DNA of 64,000 nt from an uncultured delta proteobacterium (lineage in GTDB: Bacteria; Myxococcota_A; Polyangia; Polyangiales; Houyiibacteriaceae), in contig CAVOVB010000003.1 in assembly GCA_963699755.1 (NCBI GenBank), forward strand, positions 384,001 to 448,000, given 5' to 3'. The notes below the pieces were generated by a model. It was not told the DNA's origin. It was given only the letters and a program-made list of their open reading frames with translations, and ran no database searches. The position numbers and the translations under genes were made by a program. Below are positions 2,487 to 13,628 of this stretch, piece by piece; position 1 is the first letter of the stretch, and the number at the start of each line of letters is the position of its first letter.

Positions 2487-2515
2487 TTGACGCTCATCGA
2501 GTCGTCGCGTAAACA
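2487..2515 (+). promoter_or_regulatory. sigma70-like promoter of the amidase gene
   Basis: TTGACG-N17-TAAACA, divergent from the purM promoter. Confidence 0.45.
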
Positions 2516-3701
2516 CGCGTCCATTCGAAGCGCGGCATACACGTCGAGGCTCCATCTGCTCGGGCTGCTGATCGCCGCCTCGGGCTGCCAGGCCGATTCT
2601 TCTCCCCGGCGCCAGCAGGAGCTTTCGGCGCCCTCGGTCGAGCTGACCACGCCGGCCCAGCCACAGCGCGACAAAGCCCATCTCTCCCGGATCGACGTGT
2701 ATGGCGCCGAAGGCGTAGATCCGGCTGGCGCGCGCGTGGTCCTTCTCTTCGAAGGAGTCCCACTCTTTCACCACAAGCAGCTTCCCGCCGAGGGGATTCT
2801 GCCACCACGTATTGCCATCGAGCTCGAGGACGTCGAATGGGGTGAGGGCGTCCCCGTTTCTCAGTCCGTCGAGCGAGGGGGCCTCGAGCGCGTCCGGCTT
2901 GCCACGCCCAACCCTCGTGTCGTCTTGGATCTGCAACCGAACGCTACCGGACGCGTCTTCTTTCTGACGGACCCGTACCGCATCGTCGTAGACGTGAGCA
3001 CGGCACGACCTTCGCGAAACAAGCGCAGACCGCTCGTGGTTCTCGATCCTGGGCACGGTGGTCCGGAACCTGGCGCCGCAAACGAAGAGTTCGGGCTCGT
3101 GGAATCACAGTTGGCGCTCGACCTGGCTGAGCTGACCGCTGCGCGGCTGCGCGCGATCATGCCGCGCGTCCGGGTGATGCTCACCAGGTCGAGCGATGTC
3201 GATCTCTCGCTCGAAGAGCGTTGTGCTTTGGCCAATGCAATGGAGGCGGACGCATTCGTGTCGATTCATTTCAATGCGAGCTCTGAGCCGGTTCGAAAAG
3301 GCGGCGTCACGACTTTCGTGCTCGACACGACGAACGACCGACAGGCACTTCGCTTGGCTGCGCGTGAAAACGGAACGCGCGTTGCCGAGGTGACCGGCAT
3401 TCAGAGTCTGCTCGCGAAGCATCATCGAAAGACCCAAACCGATGGCTCCTTGACCTTGGCTGGCAAGATCCAGCGGCACACCCTGAAACGAGGCCGCGCG
3501 TTTCTGCCCAGGCTCTCGGATCGCGGCGTGCGACGCGCGATGTTTTACGTCTTGGTGGGCGCCCGAATGCCCTCGGTGCTCGTCGAGGCGTCCTTTCTCA
3601 CCTACGAGCCCGAGGCGCGCGCGCTGACCAAGTATCGATACCGCCGCGCACTCGCCGGTGGCATGGCGTCCGGTATCGCTTCGTACCTCTTGACTCGGTA
3701 G
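2487..3701 (+). CDS. N-acetylmuramoyl-L-alanine amidase (AMIN + Amidase_3), probable lipoprotein; start uncertain (TTG 2487 or ATT 2523)
   Basis: Lipobox LIAASGC; AMIN-like RVVLDL...PYRIVVDV; catalytic motifs VVLDPGHGG, FVSIHFNAS, SVLVEASF; LAAREN. Confidence 0.92.
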   Translation: MTLIESSRKHASIRSAAYTSRLHLLGLLIAASGCQADSSPRRQQELSAPSVELTTPAQPQRDKAHLSRIDVYGAEGVDPAGARVVLLFEGVPLFHHKQLPAEGILPPRIAIELEDVEWGEGVPVSQSVERGGLERVRLATPNPRVVLDLQPNATGRVFFLTDPYRIVVDVSTARPSRNKRRPLVVLDPGHGGPEPGAANEEFGLVESQLALDLAELTAARLRAIMPRVRVMLTRSSDVDLSLEERCALANAMEADAFVSIHFNASSEPVRKGGVTTFVLDTTNDRQALRLAARENGTRVAEVTGIQSLLAKHHRKTQTDGSLTLAGKIQRHTLKRGRAFLPRLSDRGVRRAMFYVLVGARMPSVLVEASFLTYEPEARALTKYRYRRALAGGMASGIASYLLTR

Positions 3702-3748
3702 GCGGATTGCTTGCTCGCACCAGGGCTGACGGTCATACTCACCAGCGT

Positions 3749-6439
3749 TTGTCGAATGCTTCTAGTCCGGTCGTCGATCTCGGTGGGCTCGCACCCTCGC
3801 TCGGCAAGACCTGCAGTGGGTACCTCGGCGGTTACCGCCGAGCGTTCGAGGATGCCGTTCGCCGTGGGGAACCGGGTGTCGGCACGGCCCGTTCCTATGC
3901 TAGGGCCATCGATGGTCTTCTGAGCGCTCTTTACTGCGCCTCAGACGCGGCCACGCGAGTACTGGGCCAAGAGCCTCGAGGTCGCGTCTCATTGGTTGCG
4001 GTCGGCGGCTACGGCCGCTCGACCCTGGGTTTGAACAGCGACGTCGACGTCGTTTTCCTTTGTGACGACTCGGACGACCCGTTTGTCGGCGCCCTCGCCG
4101 AGGGGCTGCTTTACCCGCTTTGGGATCTCGGGGTCGACATCGGGCACGCGGTTCGAAGCGTCGAAGAGACCCTGCGTTTGGCTCGCCAGGACATCCGGAC
4201 CACCACGACGCTGATCGACTTCCGTCGCGTTGCCGGCAGCGGCTCACTTCTCGATCAGCTCGAGCGCGGAGCGCGCGAACAAGTCTTCGAGCCGTACCTG
4301 GTCGAATTCCTCGCCGCGCTCGAACAGGACACCGAAGAGCGGCACCGCCGTTTTGGAGGGAGTCTCTACCTGCTCGAGCCGGACGTGAAACAGGGGCGCG
4401 GAGGTCTCAGGGACATGGACGTGGCCGAATGGGCGGCACGAGCACGCTGGGGAGCTCGAAACGAGCAGGATTACGTGCGAACGGGAGCGCTTCTCGCGCG
4501 CGAGGTCCGGGAGCTCGAAGACGCCCGTGAGATGCTCTGGCGCGTTCGCAACCTTCTGCACTTGCGTGCCGGCCGCCAGCAGGACCGTCTCACGTTCGGC
4601 GATCAGGAAGACATCGCGCAGGAGCTCGGCTTCGTCGATGGTGTCACCCTCGGTGTCGAGCAATTCATGCAAGCCTACTATCGGCACGCCCGGATCGTAG
4701 CACTTACCGCGGAGCGGATGCTCGAGCGGGCGCGCCCGCGCAATCGCACTCGAGCTACCACTTTCCGGAAGCTCGCACACGGCATCGTCTTGGCGGACGG
4801 AAGCATCAACCTCGAGAAGCCGCAGCGGCTCGATGGTGATCCCGCGCTTGCGTTTAGGTTCTACCGACAAGCGCTCCGCTACCACAAACGGCCGGACCAC
4901 TCCGCCCTAGATGCAATCGCACGCATCGCGCCCGACAAGCGATGGCGGCTGAGGTTGCAGGATTCCGAAGAAGCCACTCAGCTCTTTTTGGCTCTTATCA
5001 AGAACATCGACGAGTCGGCGTTCAGAAGCGGCTCCACCGTTGCGGAGCTTCACGAGGTTGGGCTCATCGCGGCGATGATTCCGGAGTTCGAGCCGCTCGT
5101 GGGCCGGGTCTATCACGACGTGTTCCATGTCTACACCGCGGACATCCACGCGGTTAAGGCGCTCGAGCACCTTCAAGCGCTGAGCCGAGGTGAGAGTCGG
5201 GGGCGCGCGTTGTCAGCTCGACTCGCCGCGGAAGCCCCCAGGCGCCTTCCGCTCTTCTTGGCGGTGCTCTTGCACTCGCTTGGTCGCACGCGAGGCCGGG
5301 AGCAAGAAGAAACGGGTGCACGTCTTGCCGAAAGCGTGGCACTTCGTCTCGGCCTGAGCCCGGTAGACGCCCAGCACGTGGCGTGGCTCGTCCGTGAGCA
5401 GAATTCGCTATACCGATGGGCGACCCAGCGCGACATTCATGATCCGCAGGGCCTGGCTAAGGTCGTGAGGATGGTGGAAACGCCCGAGCGCCTTCGCGAT
5501 TTGTTCTTGTGTACCGTATCGGTCATCTCGACGGTCAACCCCGAGGCGATGACCTCTTGGAAGGCGCGCGCGCTCGAGGACCTCTATCTCGCGGCGCTCG
5601 CCCAGCTCGAATCGGGGAGCGCGCCGGTGCAGACCGAAAGCCGAGTCCTGGAGGTGAAGCTGCAGGCGGTGGTCGGATTTGCCGGAGACGCAGGCCAAGA
5701 AGAGCTGCAGAGCTTCATCGACGAGATGCCCGACCGCTACTTCCTCGCCAATCCTGTGGACGTAGTCCGGAGCCACGCGCGGATCTCACGCGACCGCGAC
5801 GAAGGCATCGTGACCGTTCGCGTAGGCCCGGGACCGAGTGAGGAGGTCGATTCGGTGGTCGTCATTTCCGCCGACCGTTCAGGCCTTCTCGCAGACCTTA
5901 CCGCGGTATTTGCCGCGCACGATCTCTCCATTCTCGACGCGCAGATCTATACTCGCCAACGAGAGAGCGGGGATGAGGTGTTCGACGTGTTTTGGGTGCG
6001 GGTGGGGCACAACACACCGTCGCCGGCGCGGCTCGCAGAGGCGCTTCAAGAAGACATCGCGCATCGAATCACCAACCGTGTTTCCACCCAGGATTTGCTC
6101 GCGCGACAAAGCACGCCTCCTCCCTGGTCGGTGCGACGAGGTCCCCAGGTTCCCACGCACATCAGCGTGGATAACAACGCGTCTCTGCGCTACACGGTCG
6201 TGGACGTCTTCACCCGCGACCGAATTGGCCTCTTGCACGAGATCTCGCGCACACTCCATCAACTCGATCTGACTATCGCGCTGGCGAAGGTGAACACCGA
6301 AGGCCAGAGCGTTGCTGACGTATTCTACGTTTCCGATGCGGACGGGAACAAAGTCCGCGACTCTGATCGTCTGAAGCGTTTGCAGCGGGTGCTCTACGAT
6401 CGCATCAGCGCTTTCCATGCGCGCGCCGAGGTGCCGTGA
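3749..6439 (+). CDS. glnD: [Protein-PII] uridylyltransferase with degenerate HD domain (alternative start 3707)
   Basis: AVGGYGR...SDVDV nucleotidyltransferase motif, LEPDVKQGRGGLRD, FHVYTADIH, two ACT domains (DRSGLL, DRIGLL). Confidence 0.93.
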   Translation: MSNASSPVVDLGGLAPSLGKTCSGYLGGYRRAFEDAVRRGEPGVGTARSYARAIDGLLSALYCASDAATRVLGQEPRGRVSLVAVGGYGRSTLGLNSDVDVVFLCDDSDDPFVGALAEGLLYPLWDLGVDIGHAVRSVEETLRLARQDIRTTTTLIDFRRVAGSGSLLDQLERGAREQVFEPYLVEFLAALEQDTEERHRRFGGSLYLLEPDVKQGRGGLRDMDVAEWAARARWGARNEQDYVRTGALLAREVRELEDAREMLWRVRNLLHLRAGRQQDRLTFGDQEDIAQELGFVDGVTLGVEQFMQAYYRHARIVALTAERMLERARPRNRTRATTFRKLAHGIVLADGSINLEKPQRLDGDPALAFRFYRQALRYHKRPDHSALDAIARIAPDKRWRLRLQDSEEATQLFLALIKNIDESAFRSGSTVAELHEVGLIAAMIPEFEPLVGRVYHDVFHVYTADIHAVKALEHLQALSRGESRGRALSARLAAEAPRRLPLFLAVLLHSLGRTRGREQEETGARLAESVALRLGLSPVDAQHVAWLVREQNSLYRWATQRDIHDPQGLAKVVRMVETPERLRDLFLCTVSVISTVNPEAMTSWKARALEDLYLAALAQLESGSAPVQTESRVLEVKLQAVVGFAGDAGQEELQSFIDEMPDRYFLANPVDVVRSHARISRDRDEGIVTVRVGPGPSEEVDSVVVISADRSGLLADLTAVFAAHDLSILDAQIYTRQRESGDEVFDVFWVRVGHNTPSPARLAEALQEDIAHRITNRVSTQDLLARQSTPPPWSVRRGPQVPTHISVDNNASLRYTVVDVFTRDRIGLLHEISRTLHQLDLTIALAKVNTEGQSVADVFYVSDADGNKVRDSDRLKRLQRVLYDRISAFHARAEVP

Positions 6440-7428
6440 ACCTACATCGCGCTCCCCTTCGCGGCTGGGCATCGTGCATCGTGCTGGTCGCCGCCTGTGG
6501 CTCGGGCCAGATCGCACCGGTCGAGGTACCGCCGCTTTCGAGCGTCAGTCGCCCTTCGGCCAGTCCCGAGGTGTTGCGCGGCGAGCGCTTGCTCGCGGAG
6601 GGTAAGGTTTCGGAGGCCCGTCGCGTTTTCGAACAGGCGCTCGCCGATGATCCAAACGACGCGAGGGCTTGGCTCGATTTGGGGCTCGCTCAAGAGGCGA
6701 CTGGCGATTGGGCTTCCGCTGACAAGGCCTACCAACGGGCTATCGCTGTCGACCCGAACTTTGCTGAGGCGTTCAACAACCTAGGGGTGCTGTTGCGTGA
6801 AGCCGGCAAGCTCTCTGAGGCGACGGCCAGGCTCGAACGCGCGGTCGCGTTGGACCCGACTCTCACCGCGGCTCGGTTCAATCTCGCGCTCTCCTACGAA
6901 GAGCAGGGGAAGATGACCGATGCCGAGCGCGAATATCTCGCCACCATCGATCGACTCCCCGACGACCCGATCCCTCGAGTCAATCTCGGGTTGATGCTTC
7001 TCGATGCAGGGCGACCGGAGGATGCAACTCCACAACTGCGCGCCGCTCGCTCGATGGTCCGCGGTGACGTCTTACTCTCGATTGCCGTTGGCGAGGGTTT
7101 GCGGCGTGCTGGCCTCCCGTCCGAGGCGCTGCCCGTTCTGCGCGAGGCGCTGAGCGAAGCCCCCGAGCCACCTCCGACGGAGCTTCTCGCCGAGCTCGCC
7201 TTGGCGGAGTACGCCACTGGCGATCTCGGTCGAGCGGAGGCGACCATGCGTCGCGCCGTCGGACAAGACGAGGTCGATCCGGGACTTCAGTACGCGTACG
7301 GTTCGATCCTCGCGAAGCAGGGCCAGCTCGGCAAGGCCAGAGCCCATCTGAGGCGGGCTGCAGAGCTCGATCCGAACGGGCCATACGCGGAGCGCGCACG
7401 CGCGCGACTCGAGGCGCTCAAGCGCTGA
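6436..7428 (+). CDS. TPR-repeat lipoprotein
   Basis: Lipobox VLVAAC; repeated TPR units (AWLDLGLA, AFNNLGVL, ARFNLALS); GTGA overlap with the glnD stop. Confidence 0.85.
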   Translation: MNLHRAPLRGWASCIVLVAACGSGQIAPVEVPPLSSVSRPSASPEVLRGERLLAEGKVSEARRVFEQALADDPNDARAWLDLGLAQEATGDWASADKAYQRAIAVDPNFAEAFNNLGVLLREAGKLSEATARLERAVALDPTLTAARFNLALSYEEQGKMTDAEREYLATIDRLPDDPIPRVNLGLMLLDAGRPEDATPQLRAARSMVRGDVLLSIAVGEGLRRAGLPSEALPVLREALSEAPEPPPTELLAELALAEYATGDLGRAEATMRRAVGQDEVDPGLQYAYGSILAKQGQLGKARAHLRRAAELDPNGPYAERARARLEALKR

Positions 7429-8008: not shown

Positions 8009-8734
8009 TTAGCCCTCGTCGGAGGCTTGCGGCGTCTCCGGGGCGGGCTCCTCTTTGGGCGCGCGCTCCGGAAGCGGGATGGATGCCTTCTTGATTGCGC
8101 CCTTCAAGGTGAGAAAACCGTTGCGCGGACCGGGCACCCCGCCGTCGACCAGTACGATGTTCTCATCGGATAGCACCTTGACCACGCGAAGGTTCAAGAT
8201 GGTAGCCTTCTTGTTCCCGTACTGGCCGGCCATCTTCTGACCACGGAGCGTATGAGCCGGCGTCATGTTCATGCCGATGGAGCCGCCGTGCCGCTTGGCC
8301 TCGTGCGTGCCGTGACCGACCGTGCCCGCACCAGCGAAGTTGTGTCGCTTCATGACCCCAGTGAATCCGCGGCCCTTGCTCGTGGCGGATACGTCGACGA
8401 ACTGGCCATCCTGGAAAATGTCGGCCGCGCCCAGAGTCTGACCGACCTCGAAGCGCTCGAGGAGCGACTCATCGATACGGAACTCACGAACGACCCGCGT
8501 TGCGTCCACGCCCGCCTTCTTGAAGTTGCCAGCCTCGGCCTTGTTCACGAGCTTCTCACGACGACTACCGAAGCCGAGCTGGAGCGCGGAGTAGCCGTCT
8601 TTGGCTGGGGTGCGCTTGCCCAGCACCACGCAGGGCCCTGCCTTGATCGCGGTGACGCGCCGGACCTCCCCGTCGTCGAGGAAGATTTGGGTATTGCCAA
8701 GCTTGGTGCCGATGAGGCCGGGATTCGTATTCAC
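8009..8734 (-). CDS. rplC: 50S ribosomal protein L3
   Basis: GLIGTKLGNTQIF, DGYSALQLGF, SKGRGFTGVMKRHNF, GSIG, KMAGQYG, GGVPG; SD GGGGAG before GTG. Confidence 0.97.
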   Translation of the reverse strand: MNTNPGLIGTKLGNTQIFLDDGEVRRVTAIKAGPCVVLGKRTPAKDGYSALQLGFGSRREKLVNKAEAGNFKKAGVDATRVVREFRIDESLLERFEVGQTLGAADIFQDGQFVDVSATSKGRGFTGVMKRHNFAGAGTVGHGTHEAKRHGGSIGMNMTPAHTLRGQKMAGQYGNKKATILNLRVVKVLSDENIVLVDGGVPGPRNGFLTLKGAIKKASIPLPERAPKEEPAPETPQASDEG

Positions 8735-8762
8735 AAGTGTTCTCCCCTGGAAAAGGGCCGCA

Positions 8763-8790
8763 AAGATAGTGATGCGCAGGGGCGAGTCAA
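8763..8790 (-). promoter_or_regulatory. sigma70-like promoter of rplC
   Basis: TTGACT-N16-TATCTT in the tatD-rplC gap. Confidence 0.55.
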
Positions 8791-8821
8791 GGCGGAGGCA
8801 TCTGGCAGTTCAAAGCCCCGA

Positions 8822-9613
8822 TTACTCTTGGATTCCGAAGATTCGGATCGCGTTTTCGTAGCTCGTCCGGGCCAGGACTTCCGGGTCTTGCCCACGGAGC
8901 TCCGCGATGCGTGCTGCTGTATAGGCTACATAGGCGGGTTCATTGCGTTTTCCGCGCCTGGGAATCGGGGCGAGGTAGGGGGCGTCGGTCTCGATCAGAA
9001 GGGCATCGGTCGGCTGCCTGAGCGCGGCATCCCGGACCGCGACGGCGGTTTTGAACGTGACGATCCCACTGAAGGAGGAAAGGAAGCCGAGATCGAGCGC
9101 TGCTTTGGCGAAGGGAGCGTCCTCGCTGAAGCAATGGATGATACCCCCCACGTCCTTCGCCTGCTCTTCGCGCAAGATTCGGAGCGTGTCTTTGGGCGCT
9201 GACCGGGTGTGAATCACCAGAGGTTTCTTGAGCTCTCTGGCGATTGAGATCTGTCTTCGGAAGGCTTCTTCCTGGGCCGGATGGGGCGAGTGGTCGTAGT
9301 GGAAGTCTAGGCCGGTTTCACCGATGGCCACCACGGTCGGGTCCGTCCCTGCGTCGCGAATCGCATCGAAGAGGGCGTCGTCGAGAAGCCTGGCGTCGTG
9401 TGGGTGAACGCCGACGGTGGCCGAGATTCGATTTGGATGTTTCCGTGCGATCTCGATCGCTGAGCTTGCCGAAGATGGATCGCTTGCGCAGCCTATGCTG
9501 GTGATGCGCCGCACGCCCGCCTCCGCTGCCCGTTCGAGCACGGCGTCGAGCTCCTCGAGCAGGCGCGGGTCATCCAAGTGGCAGTGGGTATCGAAGAGCA
9601 TGGCGGCGTCCAC
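8822..9613 (-). CDS. tatD: TatD family hydrolase
   Basis: DTHCHL, GVHPH, AIGETGLDF, VIHTR, IIHCFS, IETDAPYLAP, NEPAY. Confidence 0.95.
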   Translation of the reverse strand: MDAAMLFDTHCHLDDPRLLEELDAVLERAAEAGVRRITSIGCASDPSSASSAIEIARKHPNRISATVGVHPHDARLLDDALFDAIRDAGTDPTVVAIGETGLDFHYDHSPHPAQEEAFRRQISIARELKKPLVIHTRSAPKDTLRILREEQAKDVGGIIHCFSEDAPFAKAALDLGFLSSFSGIVTFKTAVAVRDAALRQPTDALLIETDAPYLAPIPRRGKRNEPAYVAYTAARIAELRGQDPEVLARTSYENAIRIFGIQE

Positions 9614-10623
9614 TACTGAGACTGATTCGCTTGGCGCAGGGAAGCAAGCAAGGCTTTGGCTTCCACGCTCTTCGGGGCGAGCTGCTCGAGGGTGGTTTCA
9701 TAGACCGGCATCTCGGCCTTTCGACTCTTTCGCAAGGCGCCGGCCAGGTCTGGTACGAGCGCTGTGAGCCCAAGCTCACCCACGAGCTCCACGGCGTACT
9801 GCCGCGCTTCGATACGCCAGCTTCGGACGAGCTTTCGAATCTCCTCCGTACCCGCAGGGTCACCCAGCAGAACCAGGGCGCGCGCGGCCGCGGCCCGCAA
9901 GATAGGGGAGCGCCACGGATGCGTCGCAAGCCGCGTGAGCGCAGCTATCGAGTCCCGGTCCCCGAGGTTGCCGAGCCCAAGCGCAGCAGCGAGGGCTCGG
10001 TGCGGTTGGCTTAGCGACGCTCGCAGGATTGGGGCACCTCTCGCATCGCCCAGGGTGGCGAGCGTCGTCGCTGCGGCGAAGCGAACGGCGTCCGAAGAGT
10101 CGTCCAACGAGCGCGCGATCGCCTCGAGGTTGCCGCGCGCGCCCAACTCGCCCAGGCATTGCATCGCGAGTATGCGAACTTCTTCGTCTCCATCCGCGAG
10201 CGCTTTCGCGATCTGGTCGGAATGCGCTGCGCCTAGGTGAGACAAGCTCCAAATCGCCGAAAAGCGCATCTCCGGACGCGGATCATCGAGTAAGCGCGCG
10301 ATCGAATCAGCACCTTGTTCCGGAGCAACGCGTCCCACCGCCAGTACGGCAGTTTGGCGGGCACCCATGTGCTCGTCCTCGAAGGCGTCGAGCAAAGTGC
10401 TCAATGCCTCGACCGCACCGAGCGTCCCCAGCGACTCGTACGCAGCCTCGCGCACCGCGCCGTGGTCGTCTCGTGCGAGGCTTAGAAGACCTGTGATCGC
10501 TTCTTGTCTTCTCCCGTTGGGCGGCTCGGCAAGACGTGCGGCTGCGGCGCCTCGAAATCGGGGCTGTTGGGCTCGCACGTCTCGAAGTGCCGCGTCGAAA
10601 GTCGGTGCCAGAGGCGGGATCAC
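9613..10623 (-). CDS. HEAT-repeat protein
   Basis: Repeats of the LxDxxxxVRxAAxxxLGxLG type; overlaps both metG and tatD. Confidence 0.85.
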   Translation of the reverse strand: MIPPLAPTFDAALRDVRAQQPRFRGAAAARLAEPPNGRRQEAITGLLSLARDDHGAVREAAYESLGTLGAVEALSTLLDAFEDEHMGARQTAVLAVGRVAPEQGADSIARLLDDPRPEMRFSAIWSLSHLGAAHSDQIAKALADGDEEVRILAMQCLGELGARGNLEAIARSLDDSSDAVRFAAATTLATLGDARGAPILRASLSQPHRALAAALGLGNLGDRDSIAALTRLATHPWRSPILRAAAARALVLLGDPAGTEEIRKLVRSWRIEARQYAVELVGELGLTALVPDLAGALRKSRKAEMPVYETTLEQLAPKSVEAKALLASLRQANQSQ

Positions 10624-12605
10624 TTGGCCGGTGATCCGGGTTCGACGTCTCTGTCGACGCTGAGTACACAGAGGCCGCTCTCGTCGCTGGCGGCGAGCAC
10701 CATCCCCTGCGACTCCAGTCCCATCAGCTTGCGGGGCTTCAAGTTGGCGACGATGACGACTCGCTGGCCGACCAGGTCTTCGGGAGCGTAATGCTCGGCG
10801 ATGCCAGCCAGGATTTGCCTCGGCTCGGCTTCGCCGGCGTCGACGACGAGCCGGATGAGCTTGTTGCTCTTCTCGACCTTCTCCGCTTCTTTCACCAGGG
10901 CGATGCGAAGGTCGACCTTCATGAACTCGTCGAACTCGATGAATTGGTCTTTACCCTGCTCGGTATCTGTCATGACGGTTGCCTTCTTCTGCTTTGCTTC
11001 AGGAGCCTCTACACCTAGACGCTCCAAGATCGAGCGCTCCTGGGCTTCGTCGAACCTGGGGAAGAGCGGGGTTGCGCTTCGTGTCTCCGTGCCCGGTCTC
11101 AGCCCGCCCCAGACGGTCGGCCAGAAGTCGACCTGCTCGGTTGGAAGCAGGGGGGGCATGCCGAGTTGCGCGCGAAGCTCGTTGCACTTCCCAGGCATTA
11201 CCGGGAAGAGCATGATCGAAAGCCATCGTAGCGTTTCGAGGACCGTGTAACAGACCTGCTCGAGCCGAGTCTTGTCGCCCTCCTTGGCCAGCTTCCAAGG
11301 CTCGGTCGAGTCGACGTACTTGTTTGCCGCCGATACGAGCTCCCAGATCGTGTCGAGCGCACGGTGGAACGCCAGCGCCTCCAGGTGATTGGCCGCTCCG
11401 GCGGATGCGGCCTTGGCTTTTTCGATGAGTCGTCGATCCATCGGGTCGAGGTCCTCTAGGTCGACCTTTGGTACTTGACCGTCGAGGTTCTTCTTCAGGA
11501 TGCTCGCGACGATTCGGTTCATGAGATTACCGAGGCCGTTGGCGAGCTCGCCATTGTATCGATTGAGGAGATTTTGGTGGCTGAAGTCGCCATCCTGCCC
11601 GAAGCCCACCTCGCGCATGAAGTAGTAGCGCAAAACGTCGGCCCCCACCGCTTCGACCAAGGGCCCCGGTGGGAGAAAGTTGCCGAGCGACTTCGACATC
11701 TTCTCGCCGTTCACAGTGAGCCAACCGTGCGCCCAGATTTGCGTCGGGAGCCGAATACCTGCGCTCATCAAGAATGCCGGCCAGTAGATCGTGTGGAAGC
11801 GAAGGATGTCTTTGCCGACGATGTGAATGATCGCCTCGGACGATCGCCAGAACTCGTCGTAGAGCGGAGCCTCGCCCGCTTCGGCGGGTCCACCGAGTGC
11901 GCTCACGTAGTTCATGAGTGCATCAAGCCAGACATAGACTACGTGCTCGGGGTCATCTGGAACTGGAACGCCCCAACGGAAGCTCGTCCTCGAAATCGAC
12001 AGGTCGCGTAATCCCTCTTTGACGAAGGACTTCACCTCGTTGAAACGCGCTTCGGGCCGCACGAAATCAGGATGCGCTTCATAGTGGTCGAGAAGCGGCT
12101 GCGCGTACTTGCTCAGACGGAAGAAGTAGCTCCGCTCCTTGATGCGCTCGACCGGCTTCTGGTGGATCGGGCAGAGGTTGCCTTCGAGGAGCTCCTTGTC
12201 GGTCTTGAAAGACTCGCAGCCGACACAGTACCAATCCTCGTAGTCGTCGAGGTAGATGTCGCCACGGGCCTCCATCAGCTTCCAAAGCGCCTGGACGTTC
12301 TCGCGGTGCTGGGGCGAGGTCGTCCGAATGAAGCCATCGTGGGCGCATCCCAGCTCTTCCCAAGCGAGTCGGAACGGCGCGGCCATCCGATCGACGAAAT
12401 CCTGGGGGGCAAGCCCCTCTTCTCTGGCTCGGCGCTCAATCTTCAGGCCGTGCTCGTCGAGTCCCGTGAGAAAGTACGAGGGCCGACCCCGGAGGCGCTG
12501 GTAGCGAGACAGCACATCCGCGGCGACCGTCGAGTAGGCATGCCCGATGTGCGGCCGATCGTTGACGTAGTAGATCGGCGTGGTGACGTAGAAGGGACGA
12601 GCCAT
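10620..12605 (-). CDS. metG: Methionine--tRNA ligase with C-terminal tRNA-binding domain
   Basis: FYVTTPIYYVN, HIGH, CVGC...CPIH, YVWLDAL, GKDILRFH, KMSKS, C-terminal ANLKPRKLMGLESQGM. Confidence 0.98.
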   Translation of the reverse strand: MARPFYVTTPIYYVNDRPHIGHAYSTVAADVLSRYQRLRGRPSYFLTGLDEHGLKIERRAREEGLAPQDFVDRMAAPFRLAWEELGCAHDGFIRTTSPQHRENVQALWKLMEARGDIYLDDYEDWYCVGCESFKTDKELLEGNLCPIHQKPVERIKERSYFFRLSKYAQPLLDHYEAHPDFVRPEARFNEVKSFVKEGLRDLSISRTSFRWGVPVPDDPEHVVYVWLDALMNYVSALGGPAEAGEAPLYDEFWRSSEAIIHIVGKDILRFHTIYWPAFLMSAGIRLPTQIWAHGWLTVNGEKMSKSLGNFLPPGPLVEAVGADVLRYYFMREVGFGQDGDFSHQNLLNRYNGELANGLGNLMNRIVASILKKNLDGQVPKVDLEDLDPMDRRLIEKAKAASAGAANHLEALAFHRALDTIWELVSAANKYVDSTEPWKLAKEGDKTRLEQVCYTVLETLRWLSIMLFPVMPGKCNELRAQLGMPPLLPTEQVDFWPTVWGGLRPGTETRSATPLFPRFDEAQERSILERLGVEAPEAKQKKATVMTDTEQGKDQFIEFDEFMKVDLRIALVKEAEKVEKSNKLIRLVVDAGEAEPRQILAGIAEHYAPEDLVGQRVVIVANLKPRKLMGLESQGMVLAASDESGLCVLSVDRDVEPGSPAK

Positions 12606-12644
12606 TTCGCGCCCGAGACTAGCCAATATCGGCCGAGATGCCAG

Positions 12645-13628
12645 CTAGCGGAGATTTCGAAGACCAAAGAGCATGGAGTCGAGCGCTACCTGCTTGTTGG
12701 CGTTCTTGTGGATCGATTGGACGCAGTCGTGAATCAGGGAGACACGCGCGGCGGCAGCGCTCGACGAAAGAGGCAGTGCACGTTCCAGGGCCTCCTCGGC
12801 CCGCGCCGAGAAACCGAGCCCTTCGCTTGGTAGGCCGAGCGCGCTGGCAGCGAGATCCCGATAGAAGATCTGGAGCGTGAGCAATGCGAGCTCGAGGTCG
12901 TCGCGCCGAGCCAGTTGCTCGGAAAGCTCGACCAGAATGCCTGGGCCGGAGCCGCGAACCGCATCGTCGATCGAGAACACCAACTCGCTCAAGGCGTCCA
13001 CGGCGCCATCGGTTGCGAGGGCTAGGGCGACGTCGGCGCGGCCTGCGCTCAACGCGATGGCCGCGGAGATGCAATCTTCCGGAGCTCCTTCCGACGCGAG
13101 GATCTCACCAAGAACCGCCCGAGGAAGGCGTCCGAATCGAACGCGCTGGCAGCGAGATCGAATCGTCGGCAGGAGCGAGTCAGGTCGCTCCGAAGTGAGA
13201 ATGAAGTGCACTTTGGGGCGGGGCTCTTCGAGCGTCTTGAGCAAGGCATTGGCCGCCTCGGGCTGAAAGCCGGGGAACGAAACGTCCGCCTCGGGAAAAA
13301 TGAAGAAGGTTGCCTCAGCCTCGAAGGGCGCAAACTGCGCGAGTGGAAGTATCTCGGTTCGAAGAACTTCGACCTGGATGTTGCGCTTGCCTTCGTCCCG
13401 CGGTCGGAACACCCGCACGTCGGGATGCGCACCCGAATCGATTCGCTCGGCGATATGTGGATCGCCAGAAGCGATGATGTCCGTCGCCAGTGCCAGAGCG
13501 GTGAGCTCTTTGCCGACCCCGCTAGGTCCTTCAAAGAGATAAGCCGACGCCAAACGCCCTTGCTCACGCGCTCGCGTGAGGCCTCGGATCGCAAGGTCCT
13601 GCGCCCGCACCGACTCGAGCGCGCTCAC
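12645..13628 (-). CDS. holB: DNA polymerase III delta-prime subunit (lacks Zn module)
   Basis: AYLFEGPSGVGK, HPDV, AANALLKTLEEP, LLPTIRSRCQ; upstream of metG. Confidence 0.9.
   Translation of the reverse strand: MSALESVRAQDLAIRGLTRAREQGRLASAYLFEGPSGVGKELTALALATDIIASGDPHIAERIDSGAHPDVRVFRPRDEGKRNIQVEVLRTEILPLAQFAPFEAEATFFIFPEADVSFPGFQPEAANALLKTLEEPRPKVHFILTSERPDSLLPTIRSRCQRVRFGRLPRAVLGEILASEGAPEDCISAAIALSAGRADVALALATDGAVDALSELVFSIDDAVRGSGPGILVELSEQLARRDDLELALLTLQIFYRDLAASALGLPSEGLGFSARAEEALERALPLSSSAAAARVSLIHDCVQSIHKNANKQVALDSMLFGLRNLR

Follow-up and report, generated by a model that had tools for sequence, protein, structure and literature searches.

A glnD gene in a 64,000-nucleotide stretch of DNA from an uncultured delta proteobacterium of the Polyangiales (family Houyiibacteriaceae; GCA_963699755.1, contig CAVOVB010000003.1, positions 384,001 to 448,000; the whole stretch is called the window here) encodes a GlnD whose uridylyl-removing hydrolase is very probably dead, its HD domain lacking half of the core metal ligands. 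GlnD is the textbook bifunctional enzyme, and the union of writing and erasing in one protein is credited with making the nitrogen switch fast and robust. As read from the aligned copies, the loss of the eraser's metal site in GlnD is real, runs through all sampled members of the family to which the window's gene belongs and is convergent. An initial annotation of the window had proposed a dead removal site next to a preserved transferase, and both the contrast in conservation and the alignment to the E. coli enzyme support this. But how does a GlnD without an eraser work, and what resets PII?

Site equivalences were taken from a profile alignment to E. coli K-12 GlnD, residues are counted from TTG 3707 and all coordinates lie on the + strand of the window. 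The window's family (f1) comprises 47 copies, 35 from the same genus and 12 from other genera. The first His of the HD motif, H481 (5147..5149; E. coli H471), is kept here and in 47/47 family copies. The HD pair reads H523-S524 (CAC TCG, 5273..5278; E. coli H514-D515); its His is also kept in 47/47 copies, and its Asp, lost in this gene, is missing in 46/47 and present in 1/47. Gln replaces two ancillary His, Q533 (CAA, 5303..5305; E. coli H524, with His in 4/47 family copies) and Q565 (CAG, 5399..5401; E. coli H556, His in 5/47), and V606 (GTC, 5522..5524) stands for the last motif Asp (E. coli D597), which is missing in 46/46 covering copies. These are the four changes listed in the initial annotation, found where it had placed them and facing E. 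coli D515, H524, H556 and D597. Two of the four core ligands are lost, both of them Asp, and two ancillary His are gone in addition, so that the site reads H-H-S-V against the H-H-D-D of an HD phosphohydrolase with a full uridylyl-removal site; the full H-HD-D is present in 0/47 family copies. Because the metal site is incomplete, the gene is classed as a variant orthologue of GlnD and not as a bifunctional uridylyltransferase/uridylyl-removing enzyme. Substitutions of H514/D515 in E. coli GlnD reportedly abolish removal (work of Zhang et al. in 2010). Position 524 is occupied by S, A, G, I or H in the family and position 606 by V, I, A or T; a conserved new acidic residue at either position was looked for in the family copies and none was seen. 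The metal motif of the HD superfamily is given as H-x20-50-HD-x60-140-D in PMC3249071, and according to reviews it is the HD domain of GlnD that carries out uridylyl removal (PMC4285133; PMC3480911).

The rest of the protein follows bifunctional GlnD (TIGR01693), with transferase, PF08335, HD, ACT and ACT in the same order. The gene spans 3707..6439 (910 codons from TTG 3707), and its full-length score of 602.4 bits lies above the curated TIGR01693 cut-off of 519.4, making it a member of that family. TTG 3749 is the likelier start, since several relatives have a stop inside the first 14 codons; a clear ribosome-binding site is seen at neither TTG. The nucleotidyltransferase motif GGYGR..SDVD (4004..4048, residues 100-114) is intact, with G100, G101, G103, R104, S111, D112 and D114 pairing with E. 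coli G93, G94, G96, R97, S104, D105 and D107, and D112 and D114 are kept in 46/46 family copies covering them. It is followed by the GlnD_UR_UTase helical domain PF08335 (4307..4717, residues 201-337), the HD-fold domain with the degenerate metal site (5072..5596, about residues 456-630), ACT domain 1 (5855..6076, the end being approximate; PF01842 from residue 717) and ACT domain 2 (6161..6394; PF24931, residues 819-896). Both ACT stretches pass the Pfam cut-offs, which together with the residue pairing bears out the earlier description of an intact transferase motif and two ACT domains. The match to Pfam HD, at 13.7 bits, stays below the cut-off of 22, whereas 71/90 aligned members match this model at E<=0.001. 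Identity to E. coli GlnD (NP_414709.1) is 28% over 889 columns, and close relatives share 77-91% over the HD region.

Could the loss be an artefact, or the mark of a dying gene? Sequencing or assembly error is ruled out by a contig from run X1 that is identical to 4904-5712 (0 differences) and by the same loss in aligned relatives, in line with what had been argued at first from the number of independent changes. A contig from run X2, of another study, spans 5206-6042 with 5 differences, whose places were only partly seen, and X1 or X2 may be the source of the assembly itself (the source genome, G000, is 100% complete with 9% contamination). A pseudogene or decaying gene is ruled out by the open frame and by ratios of nonsynonymous to synonymous substitution rates (dN/dS) of 0.03-0.11 across domains in the genus. 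The two best-supported runs matching the gene come from sediment and marine sediment. Contigs of an RNA run, X8, cover glnD; DNA is possibly present in that run and the contigs are not taken as evidence of expression.

The spread of the loss was mapped in an order-wide alignment of 161 GlnD copies (149 genomes), a check that the initial annotation had called for; five further copies from the genus, G123 and 24 unlisted matches stand outside this alignment. Among the 100 comparators in the order, from which a frameshifted copy with a complete motif (L032) is excluded, 99 are complete and the remaining one has Asn for Asp524. The glnD of L188 (G111) is intact save for a lone HD-to-HN change, which may be an error or the beginning of a loss. 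The other degenerate copies of the order form a 10-copy clade in family f3, where H481 is also lost in 6/10, and occur singly in G029, G079 and G046, the last near a contig end. Outside the order, 33/33 GlnD copies from a 91-genome draw of the phylum have the complete motif, which is also present in 2 further copies of the order, and the nearest 150 clusters at 50% identity, 149 of them aligned, hold 137 complete, 9 degenerate and 3 incomplete motifs.

How often was the eraser lost? A quick IQ-TREE tree of 64 rows with the HD columns removed, with which a 136-row FastTree agrees, puts the dead sets of f1 and f3 each on one branch and needs five changes within the order. A tree constrained to unite the 23 dead rows is rejected by the approximately unbiased test (p-AU 0.027). 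G029 is a long branch of unsure placement and the constrained group was named after the first tree had been seen, and for these two reasons the safe range, judging from the alignments, is three to five independent origins. The last Asp is mostly Val or Ile in f1, G079, G046 and G029. Since G075, G079 and G046 still have the HD pair, the alignment suggests that the last motif Asp is lost before it.

What does selection keep in such a protein? Among the columns whose conservation reaches 90% or more in intact copies, a set of 15 f1 rows retains 59/62 in the transferase half, 7/10 in the linker, 25/28 in the ACT region and 32/62 in HD. By this count the decay is confined to the HD pocket, with transferase and ACT conserved. 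In two intact clades no domain is better conserved than HD (83% vs 70% for the transferase; 74% vs 55%), whereas in each of the three dead groups HD is less conserved than the transferase. The domain itself is not discarded: its dN/dS in the genus is about 0.08 (31 sequences; dS partly saturated), which means purifying selection. A model of the HD domain (predicted local distance difference test, pLDDT, 92.9) has the helical HD fold and comes closest to the HD domain of a 3wf* tRNA-processing enzyme (Foldseek template modelling score, TM, 0.73); as most of the 90 alignment rows behind it are intact relatives, the model speaks to compatibility with the fold and not to the state of the site. The 3wf* enzyme, labelled poly A polymerase, is the nearest solved relative (profile E 1.3e-13) and differs from this GlnD in its complete metal motif and tRNA substrate. 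The PDB matches to the full-length query included no solved GlnD structure, and an AlphaFold model of the whole protein, built on 6 aligned rows (pLDDT 44), was set aside.

The target of the enzyme is in all likelihood PII, the only known GlnD substrate (PMC4285133). The source genome has one canonical PII with Tyr51 (C4:49557; L001:1501-1839), and it lies on a contig other than the window's; the earlier statement that the window holds no glnB or glnK is true but misleading in this respect. PII was found in 22/24 genus relatives and in 13/13 family genomes of other genera, against 0/7 tested genomes without a glnD match, and Tyr51 is kept in all parsed family PII sequences. Retention of PII-Tyr51 across the family makes another target unlikely, and the initial suggestion that PII is not the target finds no support in these counts. 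Ammonium transporters occur in 25/25 genus genomes. Two single genomes may be mentioned here: G038 (L067) has no glnD or GlnE match and a PII with Phe51, and the fragmented G080 has weak PII matches only and no glnD match. In the source genome, a divergent PII-like gene on C1 (L002:1492-2790) directly follows a membrane permease gene, presumably a pair resembling the SbtA/SbtB bicarbonate-transport system.

The PII of this order has a peculiarity of its own. Every canonical sequence parsed (L044-L072 and L258-L287 included) carries Thr39 and a G-G-K where Gln39-Lys-Gly-His is usual. Gln39 normally completes the coordination of Mg with ATP and 2-oxoglutarate, according to PMC8395244 and PMC4274968, and from the sequence the effector sensing of a Thr39 PII may differ. 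Is this what made the eraser expendable? Outside the order Gln39 is present in 6/10 genomes and Thr, Ser or Gly in 4, all with an intact HD (two loci unparsed). The change from Gln39 to Thr is rejected as the cause of HD loss, because it is order-wide, stands beside intact and dead GlnD alike and also occurs outside the order with an intact HD; it is at most a possible permissive background.

The reading that we prefer, at about even odds (0.5), is a GlnD that only writes on Tyr51 of PII, with a pseudo-hydrolase HD domain serving as scaffold or relay and a reset by stopping the writer, turnover and new synthesis. Under nitrogen limitation the N-terminal domain would nucleotidylate PII Tyr51 (UMP is assumed, AMP is possible). 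The HD domain would have lost hydrolysis of the tag and kept its fold to serve as a scaffold or to pass allosteric signals between ACT sensors and transferase; changes in the HD domain of E. coli GlnD are said to be able to alter glutamine control of transfer (Jiang et al. in 2012). When nitrogen returns, a ligand on the ACT domains would halt the writer and modified PII would gradually be replaced as old protein is turned over and new protein made, so that the switch would be slow and memory-like. These last two steps are the weakest part, and among the reset routes we place the passive one somewhat short of an even bet. In most other genera of the family glnB immediately precedes glnA, so that expression of this operon could supply fresh PII. 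The binding of PII to its targets can be switched by effectors without modification (PMC4285133; PMC4274968), and the cost of losing the eraser may be lower for this reason.

RelA offers a parallel, being a writer-eraser whose HD became inactive yet was kept and regulates the writer (PMC8012599). The likeness to this GlnD lies in the retained inactive HD; writer and substrate are unrelated. RelA is backed by its paralogue SpoT, whereas f1 has no such paralogue in the genomes checked and f3 has one. By analogy, the HD domain of this GlnD may regulate the transferase in the manner of RelA; retention under purifying selection is what can be read directly from the genes.

Several observations weigh against the preferred reading. 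H470, D471, H474, D479, H481 and H523 are near-invariant in the family (D479 and H523 in 47/47) and might still form a remnant site for metal or phosphate. Nearly all family genomes of other genera retain GlnE and the type I glutamine synthetase, and fast shut-off normally needs unmodified PII, which fits poorly with a slow reset. The frequent second intact glnD in f3 genomes with a dead copy hints that an active eraser is wanted. Finally, G164 has PII without a glnD match, and G096, G032 and G035 have glnD without a PII match (fragmented assemblies).

Is the tag then removed by something else? A tentative alternative, possible though not one that we would bet on, is that the GlnD cycle was split in f1 and, independently, in no fewer than three or four further lineages of the order, with PII erased by an undescribed enzyme in trans or by a reversed transferase and still driving the GlnE/glutamine synthetase cascade in most genera. 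That a writer-only GlnD is paired with an unlinked trans-acting phosphodiesterase stripping PII-UMP, a division of labour like that of RelA and SpoT, we regard as rather unlikely. Five separate losses in one order would suggest a permissive background for it, and most family genomes keep the GlnE cascade: both GlnE and type I glutamine synthetase are found in 12/13 family genomes of other genera and in 11/12 other-genus genomes with an examined dead GlnD, and the adenylylation-site Tyr motif of glutamine synthetase is present in 6 parsed family loci. The second intact glnD is common in f3, where 7/10 genomes with a dead native copy carry one, against 4/88 intact-only genomes with two copies (kin are not independent). 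It comes from a distant clade and shares the genome with the dead native gene (L168-L183; G026 L037, L041), a split resembling RelA/SpoT; in G026 it is the dead copy that occupies the ancestral locus.

In f1 itself, the window's gene is the sole GlnD match in its genome, and profiles of both halves found no second GlnD-type HD or transferase there, the weak HD matches being a standalone HD protein and the CCA-adding enzyme; nor was a second GlnD-type HD found in five near-complete family genomes (G008, G086, G128, G155 and G160), in a screen that covered HD types. A second glnD, for which the initial annotation had advised a search, or a transferase-dead paralogue is accordingly rejected as the eraser in these six genomes. 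A search for standalone HD proteins, advised likewise, did yield one candidate of 303 residues (G000:C8:128306-129214, minus strand; L288:1498-2409), which is similar to CCA-adding enzymes in their C-terminal half, lacks their transferase domain and is present in the source genome and in 22/22 other family genomes tested. However, it occurs in 65/80 genomes of the order, including 6/8 without a glnD match, and was not found in 15/15 genomes of family f21, among them the dead-HD G079. As its distribution tracks neither GlnD nor PII, it is rejected as a dedicated PII eraser. Within 1.5 kb of glnB no family-specific gene was found.

That the transferase site runs backwards, by pyrophosphorolysis or phosphorolysis, with the HD domain dispensable, is quite improbable. 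GlnE removes AMP by phosphorolysis with a fold related to the GlnD transferase, the region here is weakly matched by the Pfam GlnE model and the transferase half is highly conserved in the dead lineages. No convergent new residue was found in that half of the dead lineages, however, only R414 and L464 being family-specific, and the reviews place removal in the HD domain (PMC4285133; PMC3480911). It is very unlikely, too, that the HD domain still removes the tag through a site remodelled on the kept His and Asp. The domain is under purifying selection and H481, H523 and D479 are each present in 47/47 family copies, but the kept residues are invariant in intact enzymes as well and none is a gained substitute, H481 is lost in 6/10 of the f3 dead copies and decay affects about half of the conserved columns in HD. 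A non-PII target, or joint action with the tetratricopeptide repeat (TPR) lipoprotein encoded downstream, is scarcely credible: glnD overlaps the TPR start codon and a PII with Thr39 for the Mg-binding Gln is not fully canonical, but the TPR synteny is common to intact copies, the altered PII, with its Tyr51 kept, accompanies both intact and dead GlnD throughout the order, and PII is the sole known GlnD substrate (PMC4285133).

Did the eraser become superfluous when its downstream cascade vanished? The window's genus yielded 0 true GlnE matches and 0 TIGR00653 matches over the cut-off in 25 genomes, and has GlnII replacing the glnB-linked type I glutamine synthetase and GlnE. This later loss is shared by G160 alone, which the tree places as sister to the genus. 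Loss of GlnE and the type I enzyme is rejected as the cause of eraser death because 12/13 family genomes of other genera keep both, and this retention indicates that the eraser died first and GlnE was lost later. In two genera with an intact HD, g51 and g7, no GlnE match was obtained at E<=1e-45. The source genome carries two near-identical GlnII genes, on C1 (L086:1474-2508) and C7 (L087:1159-2193), a duplication that may reflect the 9% contamination. A search for NtrC in five genomes, with dead and with intact GlnD, gave no match over the cut-off in either kind.

How does this compare with known GlnD systems? Bifunctional GlnD shares with the present enzyme the domain order, the intact transferase motif and a PII-Tyr51 in the genome; the difference is the loss of both motif Asp and two ancillary His, fixed family-wide with no second copy in the genomes checked. 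Actinobacterial GlnD, which adenylylates GlnK, is an instance of variation in the chemistry of GlnD and in the control of PII. Its gene lies in an amtB-glnK-glnD operon (PMC4285133), unlike the glnD described here, which is outside any such operon, and GlnK proteolysis is mentioned for Streptomyces coelicolor in PMC9397018. The literature searched contained no report of a natural eraser-dead GlnD or of glnD in Myxococcota; subscription reviews may mention it. A repeatedly evolved writer-only GlnD, if true, would mean that the coupling of writing and erasing is dispensable, and it poses the question of what resets PII. Intact and dead orthologues at about 55-60% identity offer natural experiments on non-hydrolytic roles of HD domains. 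Such genes, which annotation pipelines would label bifunctional, probably wrongly, may also supply one-way uridylyltransferases of the type proposed for ammonia-excreting engineered diazotrophs in reviews (PMC6490700).

The neighbourhood of glnD is inherited. An N-acetylmuramoyl-L-alanine amidase gene (2487..3701, +), also found beside glnD with an intact HD, is the ancestral upstream neighbour, and a TPR protein with a lipobox-like N-terminus (6436..7428, +), its start codon overlapped by glnD, the ancestral downstream one. At intact-HD loci the TPR gene follows glnD in 10/14 and the amidase gene precedes it in 5/14. Since the TPR synteny is common to these loci, the arrangement is an ancestral neighbourhood and not tied to HD loss, and the functional tie read earlier into the coupling with the TPR lipoprotein is unsupported. 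The remaining neighbours are ordinary housekeeping genes. Further upstream lie purN- and purM-like genes (764-2472), purM recognized by search and purN by inspection, and downstream on the minus strand at 8009-13628 are rplC-, tatD-, metG- and holB-like genes, of which tatD was recognized by search and the others by inspection.

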